Shown here piece after piece: positions 4,354-21,405 of a stretch of DNA of 24,000 nt. Source of the stretch: Actinomycetes bacterium KLBMP 9797 (GTDB lineage: Bacteria > Actinomycetota > Actinomycetes > Mycobacteriales > Micromonosporaceae); the NCBI GenBank assembly GCA_037414955.1, contig JBBEWH010000028.1, positions 26,429 to 50,428 of the forward strand, in the 5' to 3' direction. Made by a program: the position numbers and the translations under genes. The stretch's first letter is position 1. Each line of letters starts with the position of its first letter. The notes under the pieces were generated by a model. The model ran no database searches, was not told the DNA's origin, and was given only the letters and a program-made list of their open reading frames with translations.

Positions 4354-4364
4354 GAGGTGGATTG

Positions 4365-5510: not shown

Positions 5511-5511
5511 C

Positions 5512-5530
5512 GGACGCCTTGATCATGGGG
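5512..5530. repeat. Solo 3' arm of the palindromic element (A3)
   Basis: GGACGCCTTGATCATGGGG begins 2 nt after stop 5508-5510. I see no matching 5' arm upstream. Confidence 0.8.
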
Positions 5531-6133
5531 AGGGGCGCGGTGGAAGGTGAGCTGGACGCTATGGTCGGTGGCATGGCGGCGCCGCTGGCACGTACCCATG
5601 AAGAGGCTCACCTCTACATGGAGCTGCATCCGTGTCCGGCGTGCGGCGAGCCGGAGTTCGACGCGGCGAGCGCGGTCCGCGAGACGGACGCCGGGTGGCT
5701 GGTCCGGTACGCGGGCGTGTGTGTCCAGTGTGGACGCGCGCGGGCCTTCGAGTTCCGCCAGCCCGACGAGATGCGGCCGCCGGCCGAGGGTGCGTGGGCG
5801 TCCGGTGCCGAGCCGTCCGAGTTGCTCGACGCGGGGGAGTGGCTGTTCGTGGCCGACACCTATGCCAGCGCGCCGGCCGGGGCCGATTCGGGAGCGTCCA
5901 TAGTAGACCTGCGATCGGCGGCGGCCGCGCTGGACGAGGTGCTCAAGTTCCTGCCGGACGGGGCCGCCGCGCTTCCCGACGAGGCGTTCTGGTCCGCGCG
6001 CGGCCGGGCGGTGCGCGCCGCCGAGCCGGGGCGCTTCAGTCGCGTCCGGCTGCTGGCCGCCCGCGCGACCTACGCCCGACTGCTCGCGAGCGCCCATGAT
6101 CAAGGCGTCCCGGTAGTCGCTAGAACGACATGA
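5525..6133 (+). CDS. Single-domain member of the CxxC...CxxC family
   Basis: In-frame part of ORF 4991..6133. Motifs: RTHEEAHLYMELHPCPACG...GVCVQCGRARAFEFRQP...PSELLDAGEW...VLKFLPDGAAALPDEAFWSARGR. ATG 5525 lies in a solo 3' arm of the palindromic element. ATG 5561 or 5573 are alternative starts, and 5573 best matches the N-terminus of the paralogue at 7560. The last 13 codons (SAHDQGVPVVARTT) are read from element A4. Confidence 0.65.
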   Translation: MGRGAVEGELDAMVGGMAAPLARTHEEAHLYMELHPCPACGEPEFDAASAVRETDAGWLVRYAGVCVQCGRARAFEFRQPDEMRPPAEGAWASGAEPSELLDAGEWLFVADTYASAPAGADSGASIVDLRSAAAALDEVLKFLPDGAAALPDEAFWSARGRAVRAAEPGRFSRVRLLAARATYARLLASAHDQGVPVVARTT

Positions 6134-6152
6134 AGGACGCCTTGATCATGGA
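6093..6152. repeat. Palindromic element A4 (outer arms perfect over 17 bp, core degenerate)
   Basis: CCATGATCAAGGCGTCC (6094-6110) pairs with GGACGCCTTGATCATGG (6135-6151). The core is CGGTAGTCGCTAGAACGACATGAA. Confidence 0.9.
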
Positions 6153-6636
6153 GAGACTGACAGCGGACGAGATCACCGAGGTTGCCGGCGCGCTCGCCGG
6201 GCTGTCCTGGTCGTGGACGGTCGACGACCTGGACCGGCTGGTCGACGGGTTCGGCTGGCCGATCGCGGCCGGTCCGAGCGTGGGCGGCGCCGTCCTGCAG
6301 ACCGGTCTGGCGCCGCACCACGGCTTCGCCGACGTGCGGTTCGACGGCGGGGCGGTGGGCGCCATCGTGGTACGGGTCACCGACGGCTCGCCCGAGGCGA
6401 CCGACCCGCGGCGGGACGCGTTCGCCGCGGCGGTGACGGCGGTGACCGGGGTGGCCGGCCCGCCGACCGAGCGCCGGCCCGGGCCGGCGCCCGAGGTGCG
6501 CTGGCGGGTGCCGTCCGGCGTGCTGCGGGTCACGGACGACGGCGTGTTCGTCGAGCTCGCGCTGCTCTCCGAGGCGCACGCGGCGCTGATCGACGAGGCC
6601 GACAGCGACCAGGATGATGGCGAGGACGACTGGTGA
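6148..6636 (+). CDS. Hypothetical protein with an acidic C-terminal tail
   Basis: ORF track 6130..6636. ATG 6130 overlaps the previous stop (ATGA). ATG 6148 lies inside the 3' arm of element A4, with GAAGGA 10 nt upstream, and gives MERLTADEITEV... High GC3. The tail is DEADSDQDDGEDDW. No family recognised with confidence. Confidence 0.6.
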   Translation: MERLTADEITEVAGALAGLSWSWTVDDLDRLVDGFGWPIAAGPSVGGAVLQTGLAPHHGFADVRFDGGAVGAIVVRVTDGSPEATDPRRDAFAAAVTAVTGVAGPPTERRPGPAPEVRWRVPSGVLRVTDDGVFVELALLSEAHAALIDEADSDQDDGEDDW

Positions 6637-7556
6637 CGGCTACGACCTGGGATGACTTCGCGGCGGGGCTCGGTGACATCCTGGGCCGGCTGCCCGACGA
6701 CGCCGTGGTGCAGTTCTACGCCGCCGACCGGCCGGACGAGCAGTGTGCGCAGTTCTGGCAGGACCCCGACGCGCTGCACGCCGAGATCGGCAGCGAGCGG
6801 GTCGACCTCGACTGGCCGGCGCCCGCGTCCGCCTACCGGGAGTTGGCTGGCCGGGTCGCCGAGGTGCTGCGGGAGCTGGGGTTCGCGGCGCCCGGGGACG
6901 TGACCTACCACGCCTGGCGGTCGGCCGACAGCAGCGAGCTGCCCCTGCCGGAACTGGGCATCGCCCCGGTGGAGGTGAGCTACTTCGCCCGGCTGCGGGA
7001 CGGCGACGCGCCAACCCACCCCACCGGCCTGTTACGGCGTACCCGAATAGGAAGCCGGACCACCGACGAAGCGCTCGGTCGCGACGGGCGCTGGCAGCCC
7101 ACGGACACCTTGGTCCTCGCCGAGCTGGGCGACGTGGCCGACGAGGTCCGGCCGATCACGGCCGCGGCGGCGGCCGGGGTGGTCGCCCAGTGGGATGAGG
7201 AGCCCGACGTGCGGTTCGCGGGTCCGCCGAGGGCGGACGCCCGCCCGCTCGCCGACGACGAGCGGGCACGGGTGGTCGCCTACCTGCGGGAGGCGCCGAT
7301 CGTGGTGGCCGGGTTCGGCTTCGACCCGGACCCGTACGACCCGGAGGGCGCGGAGGTCGTGCCGCTGCACCTGCACACGGACGGCGCGTGGGTGTGGTCG
7401 GCGTCGCTGGGCTACTTCGCCGAGCGGTACGGGATGCCGCCGGAGCCGGATCTGCTGGCGCACATCGTGCAGCGCGGATACCGGTGGCCGGAGCTTGATC
7501 GCGCCGCCCTGGAGCGGGTGAGTAGATTGATCACGAAGCGAGCGGGTGGAGGATAG
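6633..7556 (+). CDS. Hypothetical 307-aa protein
   Basis: GTG 6633 overlaps the upstream stop (GTGA, 6633-6636), which suggests translational coupling. High GC3. The N-terminal ~90 aa (WDDFAAGLGDILGRLPDDAVVQFYA...CAQFWQ...LHAEIGS) loosely resemble YbjN/secretion-chaperone-like sensor domains; this is tentative. The C-terminal part carries HLHTDGAWVWSASLGYFAERYGMPPEPDLLAHI. Confidence 0.6.
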   Translation: MTATTWDDFAAGLGDILGRLPDDAVVQFYAADRPDEQCAQFWQDPDALHAEIGSERVDLDWPAPASAYRELAGRVAEVLRELGFAAPGDVTYHAWRSADSSELPLPELGIAPVEVSYFARLRDGDAPTHPTGLLRRTRIGSRTTDEALGRDGRWQPTDTLVLAELGDVADEVRPITAAAAAGVVAQWDEEPDVRFAGPPRADARPLADDERARVVAYLREAPIVVAGFGFDPDPYDPEGAEVVPLHLHTDGAWVWSASLGYFAERYGMPPEPDLLAHIVQRGYRWPELDRAALERVSRLITKRAGGG

Positions 7557-7559
7557 CGC

Positions 7560-8111
7560 ATGGTGTTGCCGGTCGTCCGGACCCGGGACGAGGCTCATCT
7601 GTACATGGATTTGCGCCCGTGCGAGCGGTGCGGCAGCGCGGAGATCACCTGGCAGAGCCAGCTCACCCACGACGGCGGCGTGCCGGCGCGGCGCTACCAC
7701 GGCACGTGCGCGGGGTGCGGCGCGGCGCGCGAGTTCGTGTTCCGGCTGCCGGAGCGGCCGGCGGTGCCCGGCGACGACGGGGTGTTCTTCGGCGGCCCGG
7801 AGCCGTCGCAGCTGCTCGACGCGGGCGAGTGGCGGCTGATCGCCGACCTGGGCGTGCGGGAGGGTTCGGCGCCGCGCACCGGCGATCCGGCCGACGACGC
7901 CGAGCGCCAGCGGGCGTTCGCGCTCGCGCTGGCGGCGATGGATGAGATCATCAAGTTCATCCCGGACGGCGCGGACGGGGTGCCGGAGTCGGCGTTCTGG
8001 ACCGCGCGTGGGCGCGCCGAGTACGACCGGAACCCGGCCTCGTTCACCCGGGCGCGTCTCGAGATCTGGCGCGACACGTTCCGGGACGAGATGGAGATGC
8101 GGTTCGGATGA
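7560..8111 (+). CDS. Single-domain member of the CxxC...CxxC family
   Basis: ATG 7560 lies 3 nt after the upstream TAG and is preceded by GGTGGAGGA. Motifs: RTRDEAHLYMDLRPCERCG...GTCAGCGAAREFVFRLP...PSQLLDAGEW...IIKFIPDGADGVPESAFWTARGR. Confidence 0.75.
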   Translation: MVLPVVRTRDEAHLYMDLRPCERCGSAEITWQSQLTHDGGVPARRYHGTCAGCGAAREFVFRLPERPAVPGDDGVFFGGPEPSQLLDAGEWRLIADLGVREGSAPRTGDPADDAERQRAFALALAAMDEIIKFIPDGADGVPESAFWTARGRAEYDRNPASFTRARLEIWRDTFRDEMEMRFG

Positions 8112-8410
8112 CTCAGCCGTCGGAAATCACCGAGGAGCAGGCGCGGGAGCTGATCGCCCGCCTGCTGGGTGCGGAGGCGGAGGTCGCGCTGCACCCCTTC
8201 GACGTCGGATGGCTGGCTCAGGAGATCCTGCCGGAGCAGGACCGCGCGCGCGGCATGCACATCGGCCAGGGCAGCTACATCGTCGACCGGACCGGTGTGG
8301 TGACCGTCCACGCGAGCCTGCCGGTGCCCGTCGTGATCGAGGAGTACCGCGTGGCCCGCCGCCAGGGGCGGACGACGGGCCGGCAGGTGTGGCCGTCGGT
8401 GGAGGGTTAA
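8108..8410 (+). CDS. Small YrhB/Imm35-like putative immunity protein
   Basis: ATG 8108 overlaps the upstream stop (ATGA). The 100-aa protein reads EEQARELIARLLG...FDVGWLAQE...GQGSYIVDRTGVVTVHASLPVPVVIEEY. This fits the pattern I recall for YrhB-type immunity proteins: GW..., then G..yiVDk.tGev, then p...y. Confidence 0.6.
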   Translation: MTQPSEITEEQARELIARLLGAEAEVALHPFDVGWLAQEILPEQDRARGMHIGQGSYIVDRTGVVTVHASLPVPVVIEEYRVARRQGRTTGRQVWPSVEG

Positions 8411-9076: not shown

Positions 9077-9099
9077 GCGCGCCCGCGGCGCGGGCGCGC
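9077..9099. repeat. Pure G/C palindrome (11+1+11)
   Basis: GCGCGCCCGCG G CGCGGGCGCGC, embedded in a ~90-nt CG-repeat-rich tract (9070-9160). Confidence 0.8.
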
Positions 9100-9206
9100 G
9101 CGGCCGCGCGCCTGCGGCGTGGGCCTGCGCGTGCCCGCGGCGCGCGCCTGCGCGGCCTCGTTCGCCGATCAAGGGCTGGGGCACGTGGTTCGATCTTGCG
9201 CGAACC

Positions 9207-9456: not shown

Positions 9457-11160
9457 TCAGATCTGGGAGAGGGCGGCTAGTTCGGCGCGGCGGGCCGCCG
9501 GGACGACGCCGAAGAGTTCGCCCTCCACCGTGGCCCGGGCATGGGCGTTGGCGACCACGAGCGCCCAGACCGGCGCCGTCACGTCCGCGAGCCGGCTGAC
9601 CCGGCGGGCCGCACCCGGCCCGTCGGTCTCGTCCGGTGCGGGGCGCGCCAACCGGGCCCAGGCGCCGGCCGGCGTGGCCCACAGCGGGGACGCGTCGTCG
9701 ACGAGCGTGTCGGCCGGCCCGGCGCCCTGGGCGGCGAGCAGCGCCGCGCACACCGACTGCGGGTCGTCGATCCCGAGCGCTCGCACGGTCTCGATGCCCA
9801 CCCGCCAGGCGACCAGGAAGTCGGGCCAGGTCTCCGTGGACAGTCGCGCCGCGTACCGCTCGGTCGCCGCCCGCAGGATCGGCCCGGCCATCGCGCGCAC
9901 CGTGGGCGGGGCGGTGAGGGCCAGCCCGTCGGGTACCGGTGGCCGGCCCTCGGGGCACCAGCCGGGCGGCAACGGGTACGCCCGGCGGTGCGCGATGTGC
10001 GCGCTGAGCGGGAGGCCGGCGAGATCCGTGGGGTAGACGTCGCGGGTGACCCGGTCGACGATCCAGCCCGGCTCGCGGGGCGGTGGACCGGCCATCCCGC
10101 CCGGCTCCGGCACCGGCGGGCCCATCGGCGTGATCGCCTCCGGCGGCGCGTCCCAGCGGACCTGGTAGACCAGCTCGGTGCCGGTGACGACGTAGCCGGT
10201 CTCCGGGCGGCCGGCCACCCACATGGTGTAGGCCCCGAACCGCGCCGGCCGGGCCCGCACCAGCGCGATCGCCTCCGCCGGGCTACCGACCGGCGCGACC
10301 GCGGCGTCCCACGACGGCGCGGCGTCCCACGACGGCGCGGCGCCCCGCGACGGCGCGGCGCCCTGCGACGGCGCGGCGTCCCACGACGGGGCGGCGCCCC
10401 ATGACGGCGCGGCGCCCGCGTCCCACGACCGGGCGCCCTCCGACGACGGGGCGGCCGCGTCCCACGACGGGGCGGGTTGCGACGACGGCGCGGCCTCCCG
10501 CGACGGCGCGGGCGCTGGCTCCGGTCGTGGTGGGGGCAGCAGACCATCGGGTACGCCGGGCGCCAGCAGGGCGATCTCGGCGCCGTCCAGGGGGCGGGGG
10601 AGCAGCAGTGGCAGCGGCGGCGGGAACCTCTGCCGCTCGGCGTGGATGTCGGCGCCGGCGGCCCGCGCGTGCAGCACGGCACCGCGCAGCAACGGCGGGA
10701 GCGCGGCGAGCTGCCGCAGATGAGGCGGCATCGCCGAGGCCGGCGGCGGGTCGGCGAGCGGCGCCGGCGGCGGGTCGCCGGCGCGGCGGTGGGTGCGCGC
10801 CTCGACCGGGATCATCGCGAGCAGCATCGCCGTCGCCCAGTCCAGCGGCCGCCGTTCGGCGAGGAGCGCCGTGCGCGCGCTGGTGCCGTCGTACCAGGGC
10901 AGCGCCACCGCGGCGGCGAGCAGCTCCGGGTCGGCGCACTCCTTCGCCAGCGCGGTCGCGGTGGTCACGCCGATCCGGAGGCGGGCCCGCATCAGCTCGC
11001 CCTCCCAGGCCGGGTCGGGCGGCGGCACCGGCGGCAGCGGTGGGCGCGGCTGCGCCGGCCGGAGCAGGTCCAGCACGAGCGCGTCGAAGTCGTCCCGCGC
11101 GGCGCGGGGGAACACCTTGCGCAGCTGGCGACCGGCGTCCGCCCACGCCCTCAGGACCAC
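9457..11160 (-). CDS. Pro/Ala-rich multidomain hypothetical protein with an internal hexapeptide tandem repeat
   Basis: In-frame part of ORF 9457..11595. GTG 11160 overlaps the stop of the upstream gene (GTGGTCCTGA). Upstream of that point the long ORF overlaps the real SUKH-3 gene in another frame and is Arg-rich. High GC3. It contains (AAPSWD)-type repeats and a YrhB-like stretch (PGWIVDRVTRDVYPTD). The start is uncertain; ATG MRARLRIGV is an alternative. Confidence 0.55.
   Translation of the reverse strand: MVLRAWADAGRQLRKVFPRAARDDFDALVLDLLRPAQPRPPLPPVPPPDPAWEGELMRARLRIGVTTATALAKECADPELLAAAVALPWYDGTSARTALLAERRPLDWATAMLLAMIPVEARTHRRAGDPPPAPLADPPPASAMPPHLRQLAALPPLLRGAVLHARAAGADIHAERQRFPPPLPLLLPRPLDGAEIALLAPGVPDGLLPPPRPEPAPAPSREAAPSSQPAPSWDAAAPSSEGARSWDAGAAPSWGAAPSWDAAPSQGAAPSRGAAPSWDAAPSWDAAVAPVGSPAEAIALVRARPARFGAYTMWVAGRPETGYVVTGTELVYQVRWDAPPEAITPMGPPVPEPGGMAGPPPREPGWIVDRVTRDVYPTDLAGLPLSAHIAHRRAYPLPPGWCPEGRPPVPDGLALTAPPTVRAMAGPILRAATERYAARLSTETWPDFLVAWRVGIETVRALGIDDPQSVCAALLAAQGAGPADTLVDDASPLWATPAGAWARLARPAPDETDGPGAARRVSRLADVTAPVWALVVANAHARATVEGELFGVVPAARRAELAALSQI
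10303..10513. repeat. 18-bp tandem repeat (six in-phase units, then degenerate units) inside the CDS at 9457..11160
   Basis: Units of GGCG(T/C)CCC(A/G)(C/T)GACGG(C/G)GC lie at 10303, 10321, 10339, 10357, 10375 and 10393, then continue with 3-6-nt indels to ~10513. On the minus strand they encode AAPSWD/GAAPSR-type hexapeptides. Confidence 0.9.
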
Positions 11161-12254
11161 CGCTGCTCTCCGGTGCCGCCGAGGAGGATCCGGCCGCCGG
11201 CGATCGGCATTTCCGCACGGGGCTCGGCGGCCAGCGCCGGGTCGACGCCGTAGTCGGTTTGATCGTTGAGGTAGAGCGCGGCGAAGCCCTGGTCGAGCAG
11301 CGGCTCGCCGTCGATGGTCACGACGTGGTACTCCTGCTCGACCGCCGCCCGCACCAGGTCCGGAGCCCGGCTGATGTGCAGGAACGCGACCTCCAGATCG
11401 GGGGTGAGGCCGGTGCAGGCGGCGCGGAACGCCTGCGCCACCGGCGGGTCGCTGTCGTCGGCGCTTGCCAGCTGGTCGAGGGCGTCCGGCTGCTCGAACG
11501 CGACCAGCACGACGGTGAGGAACTCCAGGTCGAACACCTGGATTTCGCACCGCACATCGCCCCACCCGGCCTCGAAGTGACCCGGGACGCTCCACATCTC
11601 AGTGGGCACGATCCCCATCCGGGTCAGCGTGTCGGGCAGCCAGACGTCGTACAGGTTGGCGGGTGAGCGCGGCAGGTAGAACGCCGCGCCGACCGGGCGT
11701 TTCAGCGACCACCGCGGGACCAGGCCGGCCTCCGCCAGCTCCGCTGTGGACGGCGCCAGCCAGGCCGGTCGGCGGTCGCCGGCGGGCGTGGCGGGGCGCG
11801 GATGCCGGCCGGTGACGAGCGTGTCCAGCGCTTCCTCGATGGTGGCGCCGAGCGACCATTCCCCGATGGGGTCGATGGCGAGCACCTCGCCCTGGTCGGT
11901 CAGCGCGAGCACCGCCTCGTCCAGACCCTCCACACCCAGCGGGATCAGCGGCGTGCCCAGCGCGCGGCCGGCGTCGATGAGCGTGTCGACGCTGTGCGCG
12001 GCCATCGTCGGGTCGAGCGCGAACGGCCGCGGATTGAGGTCTACGCCGGCGCCGCCCTCGAGCACCAGGCCGCCGAACTCCTCGAGCACCCGATCCGGCA
12101 GGCCGATGGCGGTCCACAAGCGACCGCCCAGCAGGCCCGGCCGGGCGACCGCCCGGCGGTACTCCGCCAGACGGTCGGGGGAGAGCCGGCGGCCGGGGTG
12201 CCAGCCGGCGGCGCGCAGGGCCGCCTCGACCGCCGGGGTGAAGCGCTCACTCAT
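11151..12254 (-). CDS. SUKH-3 family immunity protein fused to an unknown C-terminal domain
   Basis: ATG 12254 overlaps the deaminase stop by 8 nt (ATGAGTGA). The N-terminal ~165 aa read FTPAVEAALRAAGWHPGRR...VLEEFGGLVL...RPFALDP...LIPLGVEGLDEAVLALTDQGEVLAID...TIEEALDTLVTG. This is the SUKH-3 pattern as I recall it. Residues ~170-367 are unassigned. Confidence 0.7.
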   Translation of the reverse strand: MSERFTPAVEAALRAAGWHPGRRLSPDRLAEYRRAVARPGLLGGRLWTAIGLPDRVLEEFGGLVLEGGAGVDLNPRPFALDPTMAAHSVDTLIDAGRALGTPLIPLGVEGLDEAVLALTDQGEVLAIDPIGEWSLGATIEEALDTLVTGRHPRPATPAGDRRPAWLAPSTAELAEAGLVPRWSLKRPVGAAFYLPRSPANLYDVWLPDTLTRMGIVPTEMWSVPGHFEAGWGDVRCEIQVFDLEFLTVVLVAFEQPDALDQLASADDSDPPVAQAFRAACTGLTPDLEVAFLHISRAPDLVRAAVEQEYHVVTIDGEPLLDQGFAALYLNDQTDYGVDPALAAEPRAEMPIAGGRILLGGTGEQRWS

Positions 12255-13011
12255 CGCCGGCCCCGGGCGGCAACAGGGCGGACTCATCGCCGGCTCCGGG
12301 CGGCAACAGGGCGAACCCGAGGTGGCGCAGGAGGGCCAGGCAGGACACGCACGGCGGCGTGGTCTCGCCGCTGGTCGGGTCGCCGGGCTCGCGGACCCGG
12401 TAGGTCACCACCTCGGCGCCGCGCAGCAGGCCGGTGCGCGCCTCGTCGAGGGAGATCGGCGGCGCGCCGGCCGCTGCCCGGCGGGCGTCTTCGGCGTGCA
12501 GGGTGTCGGAGAGCGCGGCCACCTCGGAGCAGCGGTCGTTGCCGCGCTCCCGGTAGGCGACCGGCAGCTCCGCCAGAAACGTGCCGACCAGCGGATGCAG
12601 GTGTGGCGTGCCCCGGCCCTTCATCGACCGGGCCCGGCGCAGGCGCCCATCGGCCAGCTGGAGATGGGTGACGTTCTCCGGAAACGCGGCGCGGAGCCGG
12701 TCGCGCTCGGCCTGGACCACCGGGTCCCAGGTGAGCGGCGCCACCGGCGTCTCCGCGCGGAACTGCCGGTATCGCTCGGCGACGGTCGCCGGCGGCACGG
12801 ACGGCCAGTACGTCAGCTCGCCGCTCGCCTTGTCGACCACGATCTGCCCGGCGCCGAGCGCGGCGGGGTCACCCGCGGGCAGCTCGCGCCAGAACACGAA
12901 CCCCAGGTCGAACTCGTGCATGCCGAAGGCGCGCGTGACGCCTACCGGCTTGTCCTGGTAGACCCACGGTGCCGCGATCAGCTTGGCCTCCCACTCGCCG
13001 AGCACGCCCAC
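12247..13011 (-). CDS. YwqJ-like nucleic-acid deaminase toxin domain fused to an N-terminal YrhB-like domain
   Basis: GTG 13011 (or GTG 13005) follows GGGGAG. The C-terminal half carries the deaminase-superfamily zinc/catalytic signature: RCSEVAALSD (C161-S-E163) and/or LHAE (H172-A-E174), then ...AEVVTYRVREPG....PPCVSCLALLRHLGF (PCxxC, C221/C224). The N-terminal ~85 aa read FDLGFVFW...GAGQIVVDKASGELTYWPSVPPATVAERY, which is YrhB-like. No signal peptide, LXG or WXG-type N-terminus is evident. Confidence 0.65.
   Translation of the reverse strand: MGVLGEWEAKLIAAPWVYQDKPVGVTRAFGMHEFDLGFVFWRELPAGDPAALGAGQIVVDKASGELTYWPSVPPATVAERYRQFRAETPVAPLTWDPVVQAERDRLRAAFPENVTHLQLADGRLRRARSMKGRGTPHLHPLVGTFLAELPVAYRERGNDRCSEVAALSDTLHAEDARRAAAGAPPISLDEARTGLLRGAEVVTYRVREPGDPTSGETTPPCVSCLALLRHLGFALLPPGAGDESALLPPGAGDE
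12249..12314. repeat. 2 x 33-bp tandem duplication spanning the deaminase stop / SUKH-3 start junction
   Basis: 12249-12281 and 12282-12314 differ at 2 of 33 positions. They encode (S)ALLPPGAGDE twice at the deaminase C-terminus and duplicate the immunity-gene ATG (12254 and 12287). Confidence 0.9.
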
Positions 13012-13136
13012 CTCCCCGTAGCTAGCGCCACCCTAACGTGCCGCGTCACCGGCGCGTACGCCCGCCGTATCCTGTCCGACGTGGGCCAGACCGCGTCTTG
13101 CTCATGAGACGGGGTGTGATGGGGAGGGGACGAGAG

Positions 13137-14384
13137 ATGCGGGTACGGGCGGCGGCCGCCGGCCTGGCAGCGGTCTGCGCCGCCGCGGCCGCGTGGCACG
13201 GACCGGCGCCGGCGGTGGCGGCGCCGCGGTGTGCCGATCCCGGCCAGGAGATCGCGGAGGTCCCCTGGCACCAGCGGATGTTGGCGCCGGAGCGGATCTG
13301 GCCGTTCGCCCGGGGCAACCAGCTCGTCGTCGCGGTGCTCGACACCGGGGTCGACGCCCGCCACCCCCAGCTGGGTGACCGGGTGCTCGCCGGGTTCGAC
13401 GCGGTTCGCAACAGCGGGACCGGCAACACCGACTGTCTCGGCACCGGCACCCAGGTGGCGGGCGTGATCGCCGCCCAGCAGACCAGGGGGATCGGGTTCG
13501 TCGGGATGGCGCCGAACGCCCGGATCCTGCCCGTCAAGGTGCTCCCCGACGAGGGGGCCACCGACCGCATCGCCCAGCCCCAGATCCTGGCCCGCGGCAT
13601 CACGGCGGCGGTGGACCGGGGGGCCCGGGTGATCGTGTGCTCGGTCGTCACGTACACCGACAGCCCCGCGCTCGAGGCCGCGGTCGCCGGCGCCGTCCAG
13701 AAAGGCGCGGTGATCGTCGCGGCCGTGGGTGACGAGGGCAACCGCGACGACGGCGGCCCGACGCCGTACCCGGCGGCCTACGACGGCGTGGTCGGCGTCG
13801 GCGCGATCGGGCAGCAGGGCGTCCGCTGGCCGAACTCGCAAATCGGTGGGTACGTCGATGTGGTGGCCCCCGGTGCTGACGTGGTCACGCTCCAGCGCGC
13901 CAGCGGCATGACGACCGTGCGGGGCGGCACCGGCGTGGCCGCCGGTTTCGTCGGGGCCGCCGCGGCGCTGACTCGCGTACGCCGGCCCAACCTCGACCCG
14001 GCCGCGGTCCGCTACGTGCTGCAGGCCACCGCGATCGGCGGGACCAACCCGAACGAGTACGGGCAGGGCGTCATCAACCCGTACGCGGCGGTGACCGACC
14101 AGATCACGGCGGTGAGCCCGGCGCCGTTGCCGGCCGCGGAGCGCCCGTCCATCGAGGAGTCGCCCACCTGGCTGCGCAGCCGTAACCTGGCGCTGATCGG
14201 CGCCGGCGCGGCGGTGCTGGTGGTGCTGATCGTGCTGGCCGTGGCGGTCGCGCTGCCCCGGGGGCGGCGCCGCTTCTGGCGACCGGCGGTGGCGGCGAGC
14301 CCCGTGGACCGCCCCGAGGACGACGAGCCCGCTCCGCCAGCGCTCCTCTTCGACCAGCGGACGCAAGGAAGGGCCCCTTACTAA
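13137..14384 (+). CDS. mycP: Mycosin (MycP)-like subtilase homologue lacking the catalytic His and Ser (predicted pseudo-protease)
   Basis: ORF track 13038..14384. ATG 13137 follows GGGGAGGGGA and gives a signal-peptide-like N-terminus (MRVRAAAAGLAAVCAAAAAW). Subtilase Asp box VAVLDTGVD is present (GAC 13341-13343). The His box reads DCLGTGTQVAGVIAA where mycosins have DCxGHGTxVAG (Thr codon 13443-13445). The Ser box reads GGTGVAAGFVGAAAAL where GTSxAAPxVSG is expected (Gly codon 13932-13934). A C-terminal TM anchor (LALIGAGAAVLVVLIVLAVAVAL) is followed by RGRRR, as is typical of mycosins. Confidence 0.8.
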   Translation: MRVRAAAAGLAAVCAAAAAWHGPAPAVAAPRCADPGQEIAEVPWHQRMLAPERIWPFARGNQLVVAVLDTGVDARHPQLGDRVLAGFDAVRNSGTGNTDCLGTGTQVAGVIAAQQTRGIGFVGMAPNARILPVKVLPDEGATDRIAQPQILARGITAAVDRGARVIVCSVVTYTDSPALEAAVAGAVQKGAVIVAAVGDEGNRDDGGPTPYPAAYDGVVGVGAIGQQGVRWPNSQIGGYVDVVAPGADVVTLQRASGMTTVRGGTGVAAGFVGAAAALTRVRRPNLDPAAVRYVLQATAIGGTNPNEYGQGVINPYAAVTDQITAVSPAPLPAAERPSIEESPTWLRSRNLALIGAGAAVLVVLIVLAVAVALPRGRRRFWRPAVAASPVDRPEDDEPAPPALLFDQRTQGRAPY

Positions 14385-14481
14385 CACCCCTGATAGTGAG
14401 GAAGGGTCCCTTGCAATCGCCTCGCGCAAGGAAGGGCCCCTTGTTAACACCGCGCGGTGTTAACAAGGGGCCCTTCCTTGC
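14363..14481. repeat. Second repeat family (B): three direct copies and one inverted copy of GCAAGGAAGGGCCCCTT between convergent mycP and eccB
   Basis: Copies lie at 14363-14379 (inside the last codons of mycP), 14398-14414 (variant GAGGAAGGGTCCCTTGC), and 14426-14451. The inverted partner at 14456-14481 forms a perfect 26-bp stem (GCAAGGAAGGGCCCCTTGTTAACACC / GCGC / GGTGTTAACAAGGGGCCCTTCCTTGC). Confidence 0.9.
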
Positions 14482-14487
14482 AGCAAG

Positions 14488-15882
14488 TCAGTTGGGCGCC
14501 GCCGCCGCCGCGGGGCGGGTCGCTGCCGCCGGGTCCAGCGCCGGGCCGCTGGGCAACTGGGCGACCAGCGTCGCCGGCACGTTGACCGCCTCGCCCGGCG
14601 GGTAGCCCAACGCCGCGAGGACCTCGGCGCTCGGCACGGCGAACTTGACGCCGATGTCGGTGACCACATAGAAGACGCCGGTCTCCGCGTCCGGCCCGCT
14701 CACCGCTCGCACGATAGCGACCTTCCCCGGCGGTACCAGGATCCGGTCGGCGAGCGGCAGCCGGTCCTCCGAGGCGCCAGTGGTGGGCGTCGCGGTGTCC
14801 AGCCCGGCCACGCTGGCACCCACCGAGATGGTGGGCGTCGCCACGGCGTCGGGCGTGACGGCGCACACCTGGTCGTCGTCGCCGGTGGAGAGCAGCGTCG
14901 GGGTTCTCTCCGGCGGGTACGGGTCGCCGGTGGCCTGCCGGCCGGTGGTCAGCGGGTTGGCCTCGGCGATCGAGATGGTCTCCGGCTCGTCGGGCCACTC
15001 GGCCGCCAGGATCGCCTGCTGGAGCGGCGTGATGCCGAGCAGGCCGTTGGCCTGGACCAGGAAGTACTGCGGACCCGATCCGGTCTGGGCGACGAGGACG
15101 TCGCCGTTCTTGCGGCCCGGCACGGCGCCCGACGCCTGGCCCCGGCCGGTGACCGCGATCCGGGAGATCGCGCCGCCGGCGGGCAGCGCGTTCAACCACG
15201 CGGTGCCGACCCGCATCGCCGACACGGAGCCGAACAGCGCCGGTACGAGGTTTCCCGGGTCCTGGATGGCGTGGCGCCGGCCGTGCCAGATCAGGTGCAC
15301 GGTGCCTTCCGACGCGTCCCGGACCAGCAGACCCTGATCACCGAGCGTGCGGCCACCGCTGGGGCTGGTGGCCACGGCCAGCGTGACCCGGCTGACGCGC
15401 TGGCCGGAGGTGGTGGTCTCGGGGGTGGCGCACACCGTCCACGGCATGCCGACCCGGTTCTTGATGTCGGGCAGCGAGGTCGGCGCGTTCGGGATGCCGA
15501 CCGGCACGCCGCGCGGCGCGTCGGAGAGCGACTTGGTGGACTCCCGGAACTGGCCGCCGGTGCCCCCGGCGATCAGCCGCGCCGACGCGTAGTTGAGCGT
15601 CGGGACCAGGACACCGTCGAGGTAGACGTAGGTGGCGCCGGTCTCCTTCTCGATGACCACGGAGCCTTGGGTCTTCCACCGGTCCGTGCCGACCTTGGTG
15701 ATGATGCCGTAGATGCCGAAGCCGGCGGCCACCAGGACGGCGATCATCAGACCGCCGAAGATCGCGCCGATGCCCCGGCGCAGCGGGGACTGCTGCGGGT
15801 CGGTCTCCCGCATGACGAACGCGGAGATGACCCGCTGGGTCAGGAACTGGTACGAGTGGAGCTGATCACGCCGGGTCGCCAC
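14488..15882 (-). CDS. eccB: Type VII secretion system protein EccB
   Basis: The N-terminus reads ATRRDQLHSYQFLTQRVISAFVMRE, followed by a single TM (IGAIFGGLMIAVLVAAGFGIYGII) and a large extracytoplasmic domain. GTG 15882 lies 7 nt after the eccD stop. Confidence 0.85.
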   Translation of the reverse strand: MATRRDQLHSYQFLTQRVISAFVMRETDPQQSPLRRGIGAIFGGLMIAVLVAAGFGIYGIITKVGTDRWKTQGSVVIEKETGATYVYLDGVLVPTLNYASARLIAGGTGGQFRESTKSLSDAPRGVPVGIPNAPTSLPDIKNRVGMPWTVCATPETTTSGQRVSRVTLAVATSPSGGRTLGDQGLLVRDASEGTVHLIWHGRRHAIQDPGNLVPALFGSVSAMRVGTAWLNALPAGGAISRIAVTGRGQASGAVPGRKNGDVLVAQTGSGPQYFLVQANGLLGITPLQQAILAAEWPDEPETISIAEANPLTTGRQATGDPYPPERTPTLLSTGDDDQVCAVTPDAVATPTISVGASVAGLDTATPTTGASEDRLPLADRILVPPGKVAIVRAVSGPDAETGVFYVVTDIGVKFAVPSAEVLAALGYPPGEAVNVPATLVAQLPSGPALDPAAATRPAAAAAPN

Positions 15883-15889
15883 GTCGCCG

Positions 15890-17299
15890 TCACCCGCCGA
15901 GCCTTGCGAACATTCCCTGGATCGCGCCGAACAGGCCGGTGACCGCGCAGGCCAGCGGGATGAGCGCCATGATGGCGAGCACGTCGAGGATGTCGGCGGC
16001 GCGGCCCAGGTACGGCGAGGGGGTGCGCCGGCTGTAGATGACTCCCGCGCCGAGCACCGCGGCGGCCACGACGACGAACACGATCAGCATCAGCAGCCGC
16101 CCGCCGCTCCCCTCGATGTCCAGCGCGTAGCCCAGCATCAGCACGGCGAGGCCGGCGATGCCGCTGACCAGCAACGGCACCCGCTGCTGGGGCAGGGCGA
16201 AGAGCCGGGCCCGCAGCAGCAGCGCACCGGCGGCGGCGAACGAGAGCAGGTCGGCGGAGAACGAGTTGTCGACGGTCACCAGGAAGACGATCGCCACGGC
16301 CGCCACCAGCCCGGCGGCGAGCAGCATGCCGGAGAGCAGCTCGGTGGCGCGGGCGACGGCGGCGAAGACGTCGGACCGCTTGGGCACCGGCCGGTCCTCG
16401 AGGATGTCTTCCGGCCGGTCCGGCAGCTCGGGCACCGGCAGGCGCCCCATCCAGCTCGCGATCAGCGGATAGCCGGGCAGCAGCCCGATCACCGTGGTCA
16501 GGGTCACGGCCGCGGCGCCCGCCGGTCCCATGCCGGCCATGCAGAGCAGCGCGGCGAGCAGCCCGCTGAGGCTGATGACGAGGCCGGCCATGAAGAAGCG
16601 CTGGATCGCCGCGACGCCGGTGTATCCGATGATGCTGAACACCAGCAGGGCGGCCGAGCCGAGCAGCAGGCTGGAGGCGCCGAGGCGGAACAGCCCGGTG
16701 TCGCCGGGCGCCGCGAGGAGCGCGCCACCGGCGAACGCGTACGGCAGACCGGCCGCCGCCACGACGGCGCCCGCGGCGGCGTCCGAGAACGCGCGGGACA
16801 GCACGATCCCGAGTACCGCCAGCGCGGCGGCCAGGGCGAGCCCGACTCCCGCGGGCAGTGGCCAGGGTGGACCGGAGAGCACGAGCACGACCAGGCCGAG
16901 GAGGAGCACGACGCTGGCGACCGCCAGGCCGCCCCGCCGGGTGGCCGCCGCGCCCCAGGACCGCCCGGCGCGCCGGGCGCCGCTGGCGATGACCTCCACC
17001 ACGTCGTCGTAGGCCAGCTCCGGCCAGTCGTCGCGGCGGGGCGCCAGGTGCAGCAGCTCGCCGTCGCGCACCCCTTGTACCGAAAGGTTGCGGGTGGGTT
17101 CCAGGATGGCGCCGGTCGCGCGGCGCAGCACCCAGCCGCCCTGCCGGTCACCGGTTTCACCGAGATCGTCGCCGGCGTGCCGCAGCAGGTGCGGCAGCAG
17201 CTCGGCCACGACGAGATTGTCGGGTAACGCCACATCCATGCGGCGCTTGGGCGCCGCCACCGTCACCCTGGCCAGACTGAGACCGCCCGGGGCAGTCAT
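15890..17299 (-). CDS. eccD: Type VII secretion integral membrane protein EccD
   Basis: ORF track 15890..17323. ATG 17299 follows GGGGAGGG. The N-terminal ubiquitin-like domain (LARVTVAAPKRRMDVALPDNLVVAELLPHLLRHAG) is followed by about 11 hydrophobic helices. Confidence 0.85.
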   Translation of the reverse strand: MTAPGGLSLARVTVAAPKRRMDVALPDNLVVAELLPHLLRHAGDDLGETGDRQGGWVLRRATGAILEPTRNLSVQGVRDGELLHLAPRRDDWPELAYDDVVEVIASGARRAGRSWGAAATRRGGLAVASVVLLLGLVVLVLSGPPWPLPAGVGLALAAALAVLGIVLSRAFSDAAAGAVVAAAGLPYAFAGGALLAAPGDTGLFRLGASSLLLGSAALLVFSIIGYTGVAAIQRFFMAGLVISLSGLLAALLCMAGMGPAGAAAVTLTTVIGLLPGYPLIASWMGRLPVPELPDRPEDILEDRPVPKRSDVFAAVARATELLSGMLLAAGLVAAVAIVFLVTVDNSFSADLLSFAAAGALLLRARLFALPQQRVPLLVSGIAGLAVLMLGYALDIEGSGGRLLMLIVFVVVAAAVLGAGVIYSRRTPSPYLGRAADILDVLAIMALIPLACAVTGLFGAIQGMFARLGG

Positions 17300-17439
17300 G
17301 TTGGTCACCCTCCCCGACACCATGCGATTCGCGGGCTCAACCTAGCATGCCCCTCAGCGCTCACCCGGAGCCATCGGTACTGGTGGGCGGTCTCTGTGGT
17401 GTCTATAGGATGAGGACCAACCTAGGGGAGGGTCGAGCG

Positions 17440-20400
17440 GTGACATCGGTGATCGTGAAGCGTCCACCGCGTCGCATCGCGCCGCCGCTGCCGAGCGGCG
17501 AGGTCGTGCTCGACCCGCCACCGGAGACCCCGCCACCCGCCGGCAAGGCGTGGGGCCGGATGCTCATGATGCTGCCGATGGCCGCCGGTGGCGCCGCCAT
17601 GGGTCTCATGATGGCCGGCCAGCGTGGCGGCGGTGGCCCCCTGACGTATGTGGCCGGTGGCATGTTCGGCATCTCCATCCTCGGGATGATGGGGATGATG
17701 TTCATGAACCAGAGCGGGCCCGGCAAGAAGGAGATGATCGAAGCCCGCCGGCAGTACATGCGCCGCCTGACCCAGCTCCGGGCCCAGCTGCGGGCCACCA
17801 TCCGCCAGCAGCGCGAGGCCATCTACTACCGGCATCCGGACCCAGGCGCCCTCTGGTCCACGGTGAGCGGGGGCCGGCTCTGGGAGCGCCGCCGCAACGA
17901 CGCCGACTTCTCGGTCGTCCGGGTCGGCCTGGGCGCGCAGGAGGTGGCCACCCCGCTGGTACCGCCGCAGACCCGCCCGGTCGACGAGCTGGAGCCGTTG
18001 TGCGCCATGGCGCTGCGCAAGTTCGTGGCGACGTACTCGGTGGTGCCGGACCTGCCGGTGGCGATCGCGCTGCGTGACTTCTCGCACGTCTACCTGCGCG
18101 GCCCGGAAGGGCCGGTGCGCGACATGGTCCGTGCCCTGCTCGCCCAGGTGGCGACGTTCCACGCGCCCGACGACCTGCTGGTCGGCCTGTGCCTGCCGGA
18201 CACCCAGCGGGCGCACTGGGAGTGGGCCAAGTGGCTGCCGCACGCGCAGCACCCGGCGAAGGTCGACGCGGTCGGCCCGATCCGGCTCTTCGCGCCGTCG
18301 GTGACCGCGCTGGAGGCGATGCTCGACGACGTGCTGGCCAACCGGCCACGATTCGACCCGTCCGCCGCCCACACGACCCCCGGGCCGCACGTCGTCGTGG
18401 TGATCGACGGCGGCTCCACGGCCGGTTCCGACCACCTGATGACCGAGGGCGGCGTGGCCGGGGTGACCATCCTCGACCTGTCCAACCAGCCGCCGCGGCT
18501 GCTCGACGACACGTCGGTGGTGCTCGACATCGCCGACGACGGCACCATCTCCGGCACCACGATGGACGGTTCGACGCAGGTCGGCACCGCCGACGCGCTG
18601 ACCCCGCCGGAGGCCGAGGTGCTGGCGCGCGAGCTGTCGCCGCTGCGGCTGTCGGCCGCGTCGTACGCGGACCAGTCGTCCACAGTGACCGTCGACACCG
18701 GCCTGGCCGATCTGCTGCAGCTCGGCTCGCCGCACGACTTCGACCTGGCCGGCATGTGGGCGAGCCGGCCCAACCGCGACCGGCTGCGGGTGCCGATCGG
18801 GGTAGGCCCCGACGGCCGCCCGATCGAGCTCGACCTGAAGGAGTCCGCGCAGGACGGCATGGGCCCGCACGGCCTGCTGGTCGGCGCGACCGGTTCCGGT
18901 AAGAGCGAGCTGCTGCGCACGCTGGTGCTGGCGCTCGCGGTCACGCACGACTCGGAGATCCTCAACTTCGTGCTGGTCGACTTCAAGGGTGGCGCGACGT
19001 TCACCGCCCTCGACCGGCTGCCGCACACCAGCGCCGTCATCACGAACCTGTCCGAAGAGCTGTCGCTGGTCGACCGCATGCTGGGCGCGATCCAGGGCGA
19101 GCTGGTCCGCCGGCAGGAGCTGCTGCGCCGGGCCGGCAACTACGCCTCGCAGCGCGACTACGAGCGGGCGCGCGCCTCCGGTGTGCCGCTGGCGCCGCTG
19201 CCGAGCCTGCTGGTGATCGTCGACGAGTTCAGCGAGCTGCTCGCCGCGCGGCCCGACTTCATCGACATGTTCGTCCAGATCGGACGGTTGGGCCGGTCGC
19301 TGGGCATCCACCTGCTGCTCGCCTCGCAGCGCCTGGAGGAGGGCCGGCTGCGCGGCCTGGAGACCCACCTGTCGTACCGGGTGGGTCTGCGGACGTTCTC
19401 CTCGATGGACAGCCGGGCGGTGCTGGGCGTGCCCGACGCGTACGAGCTGCCCCGCGCGCCCGGCCATGGTTACCTGCGCACCGGCACCGAGGGACTGATC
19501 CGCTTCCGCGCGGCGTACGTGTCCGGCGTGGTCCGGCAGGACGGCTTCCAGCCGACCGTGGGCGGCCGCCCGGTCGACCCGGTGCGCGACTTCACGACGT
19601 ACTACGTGGCCCCGCCGCGCGACGACCGGCCGGCCGAGCAGCAGGAGGCCGAGCCCGAGGAGACGGCGGTCGGCGACACCCTGCTCGACGTGCTGGTGCA
19701 GCGGATGGAGGGGCAGGGGCCGCCGGCGCACCAGGTGTGGCTGCCGCCGCTCGCCGAGCCGCCGACGCTGGGCCAGATGCTGGCGCCGATCGTGCAGTCG
19801 ACCGAGCGCGGCCTGACCACCCAGGGCATCAAGCGCGAGCGGGCCCTGCACGGGCTGGTCGGCGTCATCGACAAGCCGTTCGAGCAGCTGCGCGAGCCGA
19901 TGTGGCTGGACCTGTCCGGCGCCGCCGGCAACCTGGTCGTGGTCGGTGGGCCGCAGAGCGGCAAGACCAACTTCCTGCGCACCCTCATCGGCAGCCTGGC
20001 GCTGCGGCACACGCCGCGCGAGGTGCAGTTCTACTGCCTCGACTTCGGCGGCGGCGGCCTGGTCGCGATGGGCGGCCTGCCGCACATCGGCGGCGTGGCG
20101 ACCCGGCGCGAGGTCGACAAGGTCCGCCGCACGATCGCCGAGATGTACGGGTTGATGCAGGCCCGGGAGGCCACGTTCGCCAACCACGGCGTCGAGGGGG
20201 TCGCCGCGTACCGGCGGGCCAAGGCGCAGGGCCGGTTCGCCGACGACCCGTGGGGCGACGTCTTCCTCGTGGTGGACGGCTGGTCCACGCTGCGCGCCGA
20301 GTTCGAAGACCTCGAGCCGTTGATCAACGAGCTGGCCAGCCGCGGTCTCGGCTACGGCATCCACGTCCTGGCCGGCACCAACCGGTGGATGGACGTCCGC

Positions 20401-21405
20401 GCGGCGGTCCGCGACATGTTCGGCACCAAGATCGAACTGCGGCTGGGTGAGCCGAGCGACTCGGTCATCAACCGGCGGGCCGCGGTCAACGTGCCCGAGC
20501 AGACGCCCGGCCGCGGCCTCACGCCGGACGGGTTCCACTTCCTCGCCGGCCTGCCCCGCATCGACGGTGAGCAGCGGGTCGACGACCTGTCCGACGCGGT
20601 GGCCGAGTTCGTCAAGCTCGCCCAGACGTACTGGACGCAGCAGCCGGCCCCGGCCGTGCGGCTGCTGCCCGCCGAGCTGCCGTTCGAGGCGCTGCCCGCG
20701 CCGCGCCGGGGCCGGCTGCCGATCGGCATCGCCGAGACCGACCTCCAGCCGGTCCACCTGGACTTCGACGCCGAGCCGCACGCGCTGCTGTTCGGCGACA
20801 TCGAGAGCGGCAAGAGTTCGTTCCTGCGCAGCCTCGCGAAGATGATCGTGCACAGCTACGACCCGAGCCAGGCCCGGATCATCACCGTCGACTTCCGGCG
20901 CAGCCTGCTCGGCAGCGTCGAGTCGTCGCACCTCATCGGCATGGGCACCGCCCAGCAGTCCACCGCCGACCTCATCAAGCAGGTCACCACGGTGATGAAG
21001 GAGCGGCTGCCCGGGCCGAACGTGACGCCTGAGCAGCTGCGCAACCGGAGCTGGTGGAAGGGCCCCGACCTGTACCTGCTGATCGACGACTACGACCTCG
21101 TCGCCGGCTCGATGAGCAACCCGCTCACGCCGCTCCTGGAATACCTGCCGCAGGCCCGCGACATCGGCCTGCACCTGGTGCTCACCCGCCGGATCGGCGG
21201 CGCCGGCCGGGCGATGTTCGACCCGGTGATCGGGCGGATCCGCGAGCTGGCCTCGCCGGGCCTGATGATGTCCGGACCGCGGGAGGAGGGCGCGCTGTTC
21301 GGCAACATGCGGCCGCAGATCCTGCCGCCCGGCCGGGCCTGGCTGTTCACCCGCCGCGAGGGCGCCCGCCTCGTCCAACTCGCCTGGACACCCCCCGCTC
21401 ACTAA
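17440..21405 (+). CDS. eccC: Type VII secretion FtsK/SpoIIIE-family ATPase EccC
   Basis: ORF track 17347..21405. GTG 17440 follows GGGGAGGG (17425-17432). There are two N-terminal TM helices and three P-loop domains: GATGSGKSE with VIVDEFSEL; GGPQSGKTN with LVVDGWSTL; GDIESGKSS with LLIDDYDLV. Confidence 0.9.
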   Translation: MTSVIVKRPPRRIAPPLPSGEVVLDPPPETPPPAGKAWGRMLMMLPMAAGGAAMGLMMAGQRGGGGPLTYVAGGMFGISILGMMGMMFMNQSGPGKKEMIEARRQYMRRLTQLRAQLRATIRQQREAIYYRHPDPGALWSTVSGGRLWERRRNDADFSVVRVGLGAQEVATPLVPPQTRPVDELEPLCAMALRKFVATYSVVPDLPVAIALRDFSHVYLRGPEGPVRDMVRALLAQVATFHAPDDLLVGLCLPDTQRAHWEWAKWLPHAQHPAKVDAVGPIRLFAPSVTALEAMLDDVLANRPRFDPSAAHTTPGPHVVVVIDGGSTAGSDHLMTEGGVAGVTILDLSNQPPRLLDDTSVVLDIADDGTISGTTMDGSTQVGTADALTPPEAEVLARELSPLRLSAASYADQSSTVTVDTGLADLLQLGSPHDFDLAGMWASRPNRDRLRVPIGVGPDGRPIELDLKESAQDGMGPHGLLVGATGSGKSELLRTLVLALAVTHDSEILNFVLVDFKGGATFTALDRLPHTSAVITNLSEELSLVDRMLGAIQGELVRRQELLRRAGNYASQRDYERARASGVPLAPLPSLLVIVDEFSELLAARPDFIDMFVQIGRLGRSLGIHLLLASQRLEEGRLRGLETHLSYRVGLRTFSSMDSRAVLGVPDAYELPRAPGHGYLRTGTEGLIRFRAAYVSGVVRQDGFQPTVGGRPVDPVRDFTTYYVAPPRDDRPAEQQEAEPEETAVGDTLLDVLVQRMEGQGPPAHQVWLPPLAEPPTLGQMLAPIVQSTERGLTTQGIKRERALHGLVGVIDKPFEQLREPMWLDLSGAAGNLVVVGGPQSGKTNFLRTLIGSLALRHTPREVQFYCLDFGGGGLVAMGGLPHIGGVATRREVDKVRRTIAEMYGLMQAREATFANHGVEGVAAYRRAKAQGRFADDPWGDVFLVVDGWSTLRAEFEDLEPLINELASRGLGYGIHVLAGTNRWMDVRAAVRDMFGTKIELRLGEPSDSVINRRAAVNVPEQTPGRGLTPDGFHFLAGLPRIDGEQRVDDLSDAVAEFVKLAQTYWTQQPAPAVRLLPAELPFEALPAPRRGRLPIGIAETDLQPVHLDFDAEPHALLFGDIESGKSSFLRSLAKMIVHSYDPSQARIITVDFRRSLLGSVESSHLIGMGTAQQSTADLIKQVTTVMKERLPGPNVTPEQLRNRSWWKGPDLYLLIDDYDLVAGSMSNPLTPLLEYLPQARDIGLHLVLTRRIGGAGRAMFDPVIGRIRELASPGLMMSGPREEGALFGNMRPQILPPGRAWLFTRREGARLVQLAWTPPAH

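Follow-up and report, generated by a model that had tools for sequence, protein, structure and literature searches.

A YwqJ-type deaminase with an Imm35/YrhB-like head domain and a SUKH-3 partner gene beside type VII secretion genes in Actinomycetes bacterium KLBMP 9797

The deaminase gene and its SUKH-3 partner

We analysed a stretch of 24,000 nucleotides (the window; G+C content 74%) from contig JBBEWH010000028.1 of Actinomycetes bacterium KLBMP 9797, and in it a minus-strand gene for a small protein that carries a deaminase domain behind an N-terminal domain, here called the head. It is followed by a gene for a SUKH-3 immunity-type protein, and genes of a type VII secretion system (T7SS) lie on its other side. 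All coordinates are positions of the window unless another locus is named. A first-pass annotation, made from the letters alone, had placed the deaminase in an open reading frame (ORF) of 254 aa at 12247..13011 (minus strand), starting with GTG. This ORF is indeed present in the ORF list, and its G+C content at third codon positions (GC3) of 0.93 identifies it as the coding frame, but its start was probably set two codons too early. The GTG at 13005 is preceded, at a distance of 5 nt, by a GGGGAGG ribosome-binding site, which the GTG at 13011 overlaps; position 13005 appears the more likely start and gives a coding sequence of 252 aa (12247..13005). The 252-aa product is identical to NCBI MEJ3743611.1 of the same organism, described as 'YwqJ-related putative deaminase', so the gene was already annotated. 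Residue numbers throughout are those of the 254-aa ORF beginning at GTG 13011. Two plus-strand ORFs that overlap the gene (11746-13107 and 11802-12671) both failed the GC3 coding-frame filter and were set aside as non-coding.

The first-pass annotation had also recognised a deaminase-superfamily protein of YwqJ-like layout and had suggested a comparison with the family profile as a check. The profile search bore this out: residues 109-231 (12319..12687, minus strand) matched the Pfam family PF14431 (YwqJ-deaminase) with E=2.7e-24 and 86.4 bits, against a cut-off of 25.9. A Foldseek comparison of the deaminase with the PDB gave blasticidin-S and cytidine deaminases as best matches, with a probability of about 0.9 and weak E-values (0.05-0.5), and a PDB sequence search with the family profile gave no match.

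Residue conservation was scored in an alignment of 73 relatives. The motifs quoted in the first-pass annotation were all present, namely RCSE (C161/E163), LHAE (172-174), VVTYRVREPG and PPCVSC (220-225), and two of them had been put forward as candidate (C/H)xE motifs. Only the first of these two was retained. C161-S-E163 (12523..12531, minus strand), at the start of helix 2, has cysteine at position 161 in 52 of the 73 relatives and histidine in 19, and E163 is kept in 71. The PCxxC motif P220-C221-V-S-C224 (12340..12354, minus strand) is also well kept, with both cysteines present in 65 of 68 ungapped sequences. H172-A-E174 (12490..12498, minus strand), in contrast, lies inside the long modelled helix 162-180 and varies: H172 is replaced by tyrosine in 14 of the 73 relatives and E174 is retained in only 51. 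Because of this difference in conservation we assign the active site to C161-x-E163 and P-C221-x-x-C224, with the three cysteines as predicted zinc ligands and E163 as the predicted catalytic glutamate. In the AlphaFold2 (AF2) model both motifs stand at helix starts (helices 162-180 and 222-230). The histidine of the strand-2/helix-2 insert, H139 (12595..12597, minus strand), is found in 73 of 73 relatives; R156, G157, R160, S168 and D169 are also essentially invariant. A conserved loop of 14 residues (REPGDPxxG) separates strand 200-206 from C221. The near-invariance of the catalytic residues indicates that the enzyme has been kept active.

Table 1 of PMC3239186 lists four signatures for the YwqJ clade: the insert histidine, C/H before the glutamate, an insert between strand 3 and CxxC, and a glycine at position -2 of 'Gx[CH]xE'. 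The first three were found. The glycine is absent, as the segment reads G157-N-D-R-C161 with aspartate at -2, a minor deviation that does not affect the score of the hidden Markov model. A Streptomyces relative (locus L075) has G-R-C-A-E at the corresponding motif. Separately, both zinc cysteines are replaced by serine (PPSLSS) in loci L016 (protein P0036) and L018, with H-A-E retained, and the deaminase may be catalytically dead in this subgroup (L016, L018 and L027, from metagenome-assembled genomes of uncultured Actinomycetota), as judged from its sequence. In these same three loci a gene for an S8 peptidase stands directly upstream on the same strand.

The next gene (11151..12254, minus strand; NCBI MEJ3743610.1) encodes 367 aa from ATG 12254, with an alternative ATG at 12287. 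Its SUKH-3 domain (11808-12242) matched PF14433 with E=1.9e-26, as the first-pass annotation had supposed, and the overlap of 8 nt that it had reported, ATGAGTGA, holds for the start at 12254, which is the NCBI start. Pfam assigned no DNA-binding family to the protein. The junction contains a tandem duplication of 33 bp (12249..12313; Tandem Repeats Finder: 2.0 copies, 96% match, score 123) that spans the stop codon of the deaminase and the start of SUKH-3. It repeats ALLPPGAGDE, adding 11 residues to the tail of the deaminase, and duplicates the SUKH-3 start codon, so that an in-frame ATG at 12287, with its own GGAG, precedes that at 12254. None of the homologues aligned carries this duplication. 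Neither Pfam nor NCBIfam assigns a family to the C-terminal extension of the SUKH-3 protein (11151-11807, minus strand; about 207 aa). Only the closest relatives have kept this extension; in L014 and L028 it is encoded separately, upstream of the deaminase.

The head domain and the proteins that carry it

The head (residues 1-92; 12736..13011, minus strand) has an alpha-beta4-alpha fold in the AF2 model. It is joined to the deaminase by the segment LTWDPVVQAERDRLRA (12688..12735, minus strand), in which T94, W95 and P97 are nearly invariant and residues 97-106 form a helix. This linker is conserved and is ordered in the model, with a predicted local distance difference test (pLDDT) score of 83-95. 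The whole protein was modelled as one compact body, with a pLDDT of 90.3 and a predicted template modelling score (pTM) of 0.86; the head modelled alone gave a pLDDT of 86.8.

The first-pass annotation had noted that the N-terminus resembles the product of a small ORF at 8108..8410 (plus strand; 100 aa; NCBI MEJ3743607.1, hypothetical protein), and had called both YrhB-type. The resemblance was confirmed by BLASTP (E=4e-7, 32% identity over 68 columns), which makes the small protein a free-standing, Imm35-like paralogue of the head. As to the YrhB type, what stood was a distant homology and what did not stand was membership of the Pfam family Imm35. E. coli YrhB, which itself matches Imm35 (PF15567) at E=4e-23, aligned by BLASTP with the deaminase protein at E=4e-4, and a small head profile matched it at E=8e-4. 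A local hhalign comparison of 180 head domains with 52 YrhB homologues gave an end-to-end alignment of 80 columns with a probability of 95.6% and E=1.1e-8, and the two share a length of about 90 aa and the same order of helices and strands. The Pfam Imm35 profile, by contrast, matched neither the head nor ORF 8108-8410, nor any of 14 + 111 relatives. Pfam and NCBIfam searches with the head and ORF 8108-8410 gave nothing even at E<=10; their sole weak match, to wHTH-HSP90_Na-assoc (E=0.093), was dismissed as due to chance. Foldseek found no meaningful match in the PDB for the head-only model (best E=0.35). By profile-level homology, the head is thus a distant relative of YrhB/Imm35 that lies below Pfam detection and, as a difference from Imm35, stands N-terminal to a deaminase.

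Independent support for this kinship came from gene neighbourhoods. Two free-standing relatives of the head, P0153 and P0155 (loci L086 and L087), which belong to the subfamily of ORF 8108-8410, adjoin genes for giant proteins with a PF15644 domain (Gln_amidase/Tox-PL1; E=1e-26 and 3e-28), and passages of Zhang et al. 2012 (PMC3482391) name Tox-PL1 as the specific toxin partner of Imm35. No such neighbour was seen for the fused head, and no Tox-PL1 gene was detected in the window. Likewise, six-frame translations of the window contained no third head copy, no XOO_2897 domain and no SUKH-4 domain: there are only two heads, a single YwqJ domain and a single SUKH-3 domain.

An exhaustive HMMER search for the head gave 278 cluster representatives, among which architectures were counted. 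The head was almost always at the extreme N-terminus. It was followed by YwqJ in 55 clusters, by SUKH-3 in 19, and by both, in a single head–YwqJ–SUKH-3 chain, in 15; a further 9 clusters had the architecture head–XOO_2897–SUKH-4. SUKH-3–head–YwqJ occurred in 1 cluster and tandem heads in 2, and in 83 clusters the head was alone or the protein was a fragment. A Pfam search of 111 representatives concurred (SUKH-3 in 38, YwqJ in 22, SUKH-4 in 9 and XOO_2897 in 9). The triple fusions are not an artefact of gene calling, because an isolate genome, that of Micromonospora sp. NPDC049679 (L029), contains two of them in tandem as continuous ORFs with the motifs DRHAE and CESC intact. A different arrangement was seen in Streptomyces sp. 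NBC_01190 (L075), in which a YwqJ deaminase (186 aa) and SUKH-3 occur without a head. At 3605-7763 of that locus (minus strand), a 1030-aa head–Pro-rich linker–XOO_2897–SUKH-4 protein stands beside a 352-aa WHH nuclease–SUKH-1 protein, and these two single-chain toxin-immunity proteins lie 2-3 kb from the YwqJ and SUKH-3 pair. In 13 of 14 Streptomyces-group loci a head match was found upstream on the opposite strand.

Since its fusions are almost only with deaminase/SUKH pairs, the head is, to judge from these architectures, a dedicated third partner of such pairs; the toxin, the immunity domain or, in a single chain, both of them can carry it. One could instead take the head for no more than an immunity domain of the Imm35 type, directed against the papain-fold toxin Tox-PL1, that became fused to an unrelated toxin-immunity pair and has no role in deaminase function. 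The profile homology to YrhB/Imm35 and the Tox-PL1 neighbours of P0153 and P0155 would suit this view. Fusions of immunity domains with each other are also common; there are head–SUKH-3 proteins without a nearby deaminase (none adjoins the one such protein that was examined), and the small genes at 6130-8410, the last of which is ORF 8108-8410, look like a poly-immunity array. We nevertheless regard it as improbable. The partners of the fused subfamily are not random genes: nearly all belong to two deaminase clades or to the SUKH domains paired with these. The linker is conserved and the modelled protein forms one body, and a Tox-PL1 gene was not detected in the window. Furthermore, the fused subfamily has invariant residues of its own (W16, E33-F34-D35 and W69-P70), of which W16, E33 and W69 are missing from the free-standing subfamily.

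Distribution, inheritance and the secretion genes next door

The family is widespread, and head, deaminase and SUKH-3 recur together in filamentous actinomycetes. In Phytohabitans, Micromonospora, Plantactinospora and Rugosimonospora we found 49 proteins of 226-264 aa with 42-87% identity, and in contigs of one genome per species 465 matches, reaching Actinoplanes, Jatrophihabitantaceae, Mycobacteriales metagenome-assembled genomes and Streptomyces. Linkage was counted in 80 related loci that were fetched. SUKH-3 was directly downstream of the deaminase in 74 of these and upstream in 2. The two proteins diverge together, with identities for deaminase and SUKH-3 of, for example, 76/70, 66/62, 55/42 and 41/38%; where EccC is present, the deaminase family and EccC also diverge roughly in step (66/81, 63/72 and 46/56%). 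Phage collections gave no match for the family and plasmid collections one weak match, to a Streptomyces plasmid. The deaminase family is chromosomal.

These results bear on one of the readings offered by the first-pass annotation, that of an orphan toxin tip: a displaced C-terminal tip that persists beside its immunity gene as a stock for recombination into a larger toxin. Its small size and the lack of a trafficking domain speak for it, as do the RHS-repeat gene at 22446-23978 and a description, in passages of PMC3113570, of stand-alone cassettes with a small N-terminal extension. Against it, many genera, in Micromonosporaceae and beyond, share the complete architecture of head plus deaminase (36-87% identity) together with SUKH-3; the gene has its own start codon and ribosome-binding site, its catalytic residues are constrained, and the relatives found included no larger protein that contains the junction sequence. 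We rejected this reading, and consider it highly improbable, because the family is conserved, linked to SUKH-3, co-diverging with it and without a phage match.

The T7SS cluster reported in the first-pass annotation was recovered by Pfam. It comprises a mycosin (13038-14384, plus strand; Peptidase_S8), EccB (14488-15882, minus strand; T7SS_ESX1_EccB), EccD (15890-17323, minus strand; EccD and YukD) and EccC (17347-21405, plus strand; three FtsK_SpoIIIE domains). This core (mycP, eccB, eccD, eccC; 13038..21405) begins 27-33 bp from the deaminase, depending on the start codon, and the mycosin gene is divergent from it. The deaminase itself has no recognisable export domain, in agreement with the first-pass annotation: Pfam found PF14431 only, with no LXG, WXG or RHS domain, and no signal peptide or transmembrane segment was found (maximum 19-residue hydropathy 1.36). 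A hairpin of the WXG100 type with YxxxD/E was not found either, the head being alpha-beta4-alpha in the AF2 model, and the sole YxxxE (Y204-E208) sits in a beta-strand of the catalytic core.

A predicted intracellular module, its rivals and the other genes

We favour, tentatively and with slightly less than even confidence, the interpretation that head, deaminase and SUKH-3 form an intracellular, self-inhibited deaminase toxin-immunity module. Of the readings proposed in the first pass this corresponds to the intracellular toxin-antitoxin-like pair, and the recurrent head–YwqJ–SUKH-3 and head–SUKH-3 fusions are what recommends it: because the three parts recur together, often in one protein, they probably work inside the cell rather than being secreted. 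The deaminase would be a cytoplasmic two-domain enzyme in which the Imm35/YrhB-like head is held by the structured linker to a zinc-dependent YwqJ-type domain, with C161, C221 and C224 as zinc ligands, E163 as catalytic residue and H139 in an insert on the substrate side. SUKH-3, which the 8-nt overlap suggests is made by coupled translation, would bind and neutralise it, and the head could be a module that binds proteins, for docking or for regulation. The enzyme likely acts on cytidine in single-stranded DNA (ssDNA), converting it to uridine, as judged from its homology with B. subtilis YwqJ. The unit would stay in the producing cell, unlike a classical exported polymorphic toxin, and the enzyme would be released by a trigger such as infection, stress or proteolysis.

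A more specific version of this interpretation is possible, though we hold it to be rather unlikely. It proposes a vertically inherited intracellular switch of three parts in filamentous actinomycetes: the head would sense or dock, release of the enzyme from the SUKH-3 block would follow a cue, for instance infection by a phage, a peptidase or a signal in development, and deamination of ssDNA, in the cell's own or an invader's DNA, would lead to suicide or hypermutation. No killing between bacteria would be involved, and the Streptomyces head–XOO_2897–SUKH-4 proteins would work likewise.

The main competitor, also among the first-pass readings, is that the protein is an antibacterial effector of the ESX-type T7SS. 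In this view the head would be an adaptor domain, or a targeting domain of an unconventional kind, that perhaps engages the adjacent S8 mycosin, and SUKH-3 would protect the producer. Several observations weigh against an intracellular role, and most of them suit export. The deaminase/SUKH-3 pair adjoins T7SS genes here and in 11 other loci; linkage to T7SS genes or mycP (within 10 kb) was seen, in varied arrangements, in 12 of the 80 loci, each of which belongs to the closer relatives. In L009 and L010 (divergent) and in L016, L018 and L027 (co-directional), the first neighbour detected upstream is the mycosin gene, without another query match in between. B. subtilis YwqJ, which deaminates cytidine in ssDNA, is exported by the T7SSb (PMC13648612), and for this reason export stays a live rival; the YwqJ clade is moreover listed with T7SS delivery in part of PMC3239186. 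The gene order, toxin then immunity, with no DNA-binding antitoxin, is the pattern of polymorphic toxins, as set out in passages of PMC3482391, and is unlike type II toxin-antitoxin systems. Fusion alone is no proof of an intracellular role, because exported toxins with fused immunity domains have been published, such as OTT_1508–SUFU in Table 1 of PMC3239186. Finally, a search of six proteins from the locus against the PADLOC defence models gave no match. The export reading can further call on the RHS-repeat gene of the window and on proteins in which Imm35 is fused to Peptidase S8, reported in passages of PMC3482391.

We nonetheless judge export unlikely. No T7SS gene lies within 10 kb in 68 of the 80 loci, including that of the closest cultured relative, Phytohabitans maris (L001), and no Actinoplanes-group or Streptomyces locus among the 80 shows such linkage. 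The head is an alpha+beta domain and not a helical hairpin of the WXG/LXG kind, and the only YxxxE is in a strand of the core, as described above. A head borne by SUKH-3 alone (19 clusters), and toxin and immunity joined in one chain (15 clusters), point to a complex that stays together and fit poorly with an export tag. In Streptomyces the YwqJ deaminase has no head at all.

With B. subtilis YwqJ/YwqK, an LXG toxin of the T7SSb and the prototype of PF14431, the locus shares the deaminase family (86 bits), the [C/H]xE and CxxC zinc site, the insert histidine, a downstream immunity gene and a nearby T7SS. It differs in that no LXG domain, PT-TG module or genes for small helical partners were detected; the protein has 252 aa rather than about 600 and an alpha+beta, Imm35-like head; the partner is SUKH-3 instead of YwqK; the T7SS is of the actinobacterial ESX type (EccB/C/D, MycP); and the -2 residue is the aspartate mentioned above. 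Of the features of polymorphic toxins given by Zhang et al. 2012, the immunity gene 3' of the toxin is present, while an N-terminal trafficking domain is absent. Nor are there variable tips on a conserved scaffold, as the head goes with only two deaminase clades and the parts co-diverge. As for type II toxin-antitoxin systems, there is no upstream DNA-binding antitoxin, and the gene predicted to neutralise lies downstream. CapRel-type proteins are an example of a fused toxin-antitoxin module. The triple-fusion relatives resemble them in placing toxin and neutralising domain in one polypeptide, which would imply regulated release; they differ in having no sequence relationship, and in our strain the two are separate genes.

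The pairing itself was known: YwqJ–SUKH-3 and XOO_2897–SUKH-4 associations are given in passages of the papers by Zhang, Iyer and Aravind of 2011-2012 (PMC3239186, PMC3113570, PMC3482391). Our locus conforms to the predicted YwqJ–SUKH-3 pairing of actinobacterial SUKH-linked deaminase loci, and the Streptomyces cluster holds YwqJ with SUKH-3, XOO_2897–SUKH-4 and WHH–SUKH-1. Those passages mention neither a constant Imm35-like head, nor a recurrent single-chain head–YwqJ–SUKH-3 protein, nor vertical conservation across the family, and the exclusive tie of the head to two deaminase clades and SUKH partners was not found in the parts of these papers that were searched. Literature on YrhB, Imm35, SUKH-3/-4 and XOO_2897 gave no description of a head–deaminase–SUKH architecture. 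Thus the pairing and, through NCBI, the name of the gene are already known, and in the sources covered the head and the single-chain forms were not found described.

Toxin deaminases are known as tips of large exported proteins. A small version that is stable in the chromosome, with an immunity-type head and a predicted inhibitor that often shares its chain, would suggest a possible third use of such enzymes, a regulated one inside the cell. The separate-gene form and its natural single-chain relatives can be compared directly, which gives a handle on the way in which SUKH domains turn an enzyme off and on. As a candidate scaffold, the YwqJ core of about 130 residues, which comes with a predicted natural inhibitor protein, may also interest base editing, the clade having only recently been shown to deaminate ssDNA (PMC13648612). 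About 280 head-domain clusters without a family name can now be linked to Imm35.

Downstream of SUKH-3, and overlapping it by 10 nt, lies a minus-strand gene (9457..11160) for a protein of about 567 aa without a Pfam match; the GC3 frame plot puts its start near GTG 11160. A longer reading of 712 aa (ORF 9457-11595) was rejected as an over-extension, its first 145 or so codons lying in the territory of the SUKH-3 frame with a GC3 of their own of 0.45. In the closest relatives the gene keeps its place after SUKH-3, with tblastn synteny in L001-L005 and L008-L011. The centre of the protein is rich in proline and alanine, with about 11 copies of an 18-bp repeat (a hexapeptide, APSWDA-like) at 10300-10511. 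A segment that had looked head-like by eye was not supported by the six-frame search.

The small genes that end with ORF 8108-8410 include, at 6130-7556 (plus strand), one for a DUF6301 protein (E=2.7e-25) and one for a protein of 307 aa that at its N-terminus matches TY-Chap3, a peptide-binding chaperone of the T3SS/YbjN type (E=4.6e-10); relatives of the 307-aa protein recur in L001, L005, L006, L016, L018 and L031. They are followed by a gene for a 183-aa protein (7560-8111, plus strand) with an N-terminal CxxC...CxxC segment resembling a zinc ribbon and without family assignment. In L005, L006 and L011 up to five divergent paralogues of this protein stand in tandem beside the deaminase locus, in an arrangement that resembles poly-immunity arrays. 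Extremely GC-rich short tandem and inverted repeats (periods 13-29) at 9077-9154, between the genes for a 219-aa membrane protein and the 567-aa protein, may act as a terminator or form some other structured element. Beyond the T7SS cluster, just past a regulator of the BTAD/SARP type (21492-22334), the RHS-repeat gene (22446-23978, minus strand; PF05593, E=5e-15) runs off the end of the window, so that its toxin tip lies outside; it is a candidate for the conventional polymorphic toxin of the locus.

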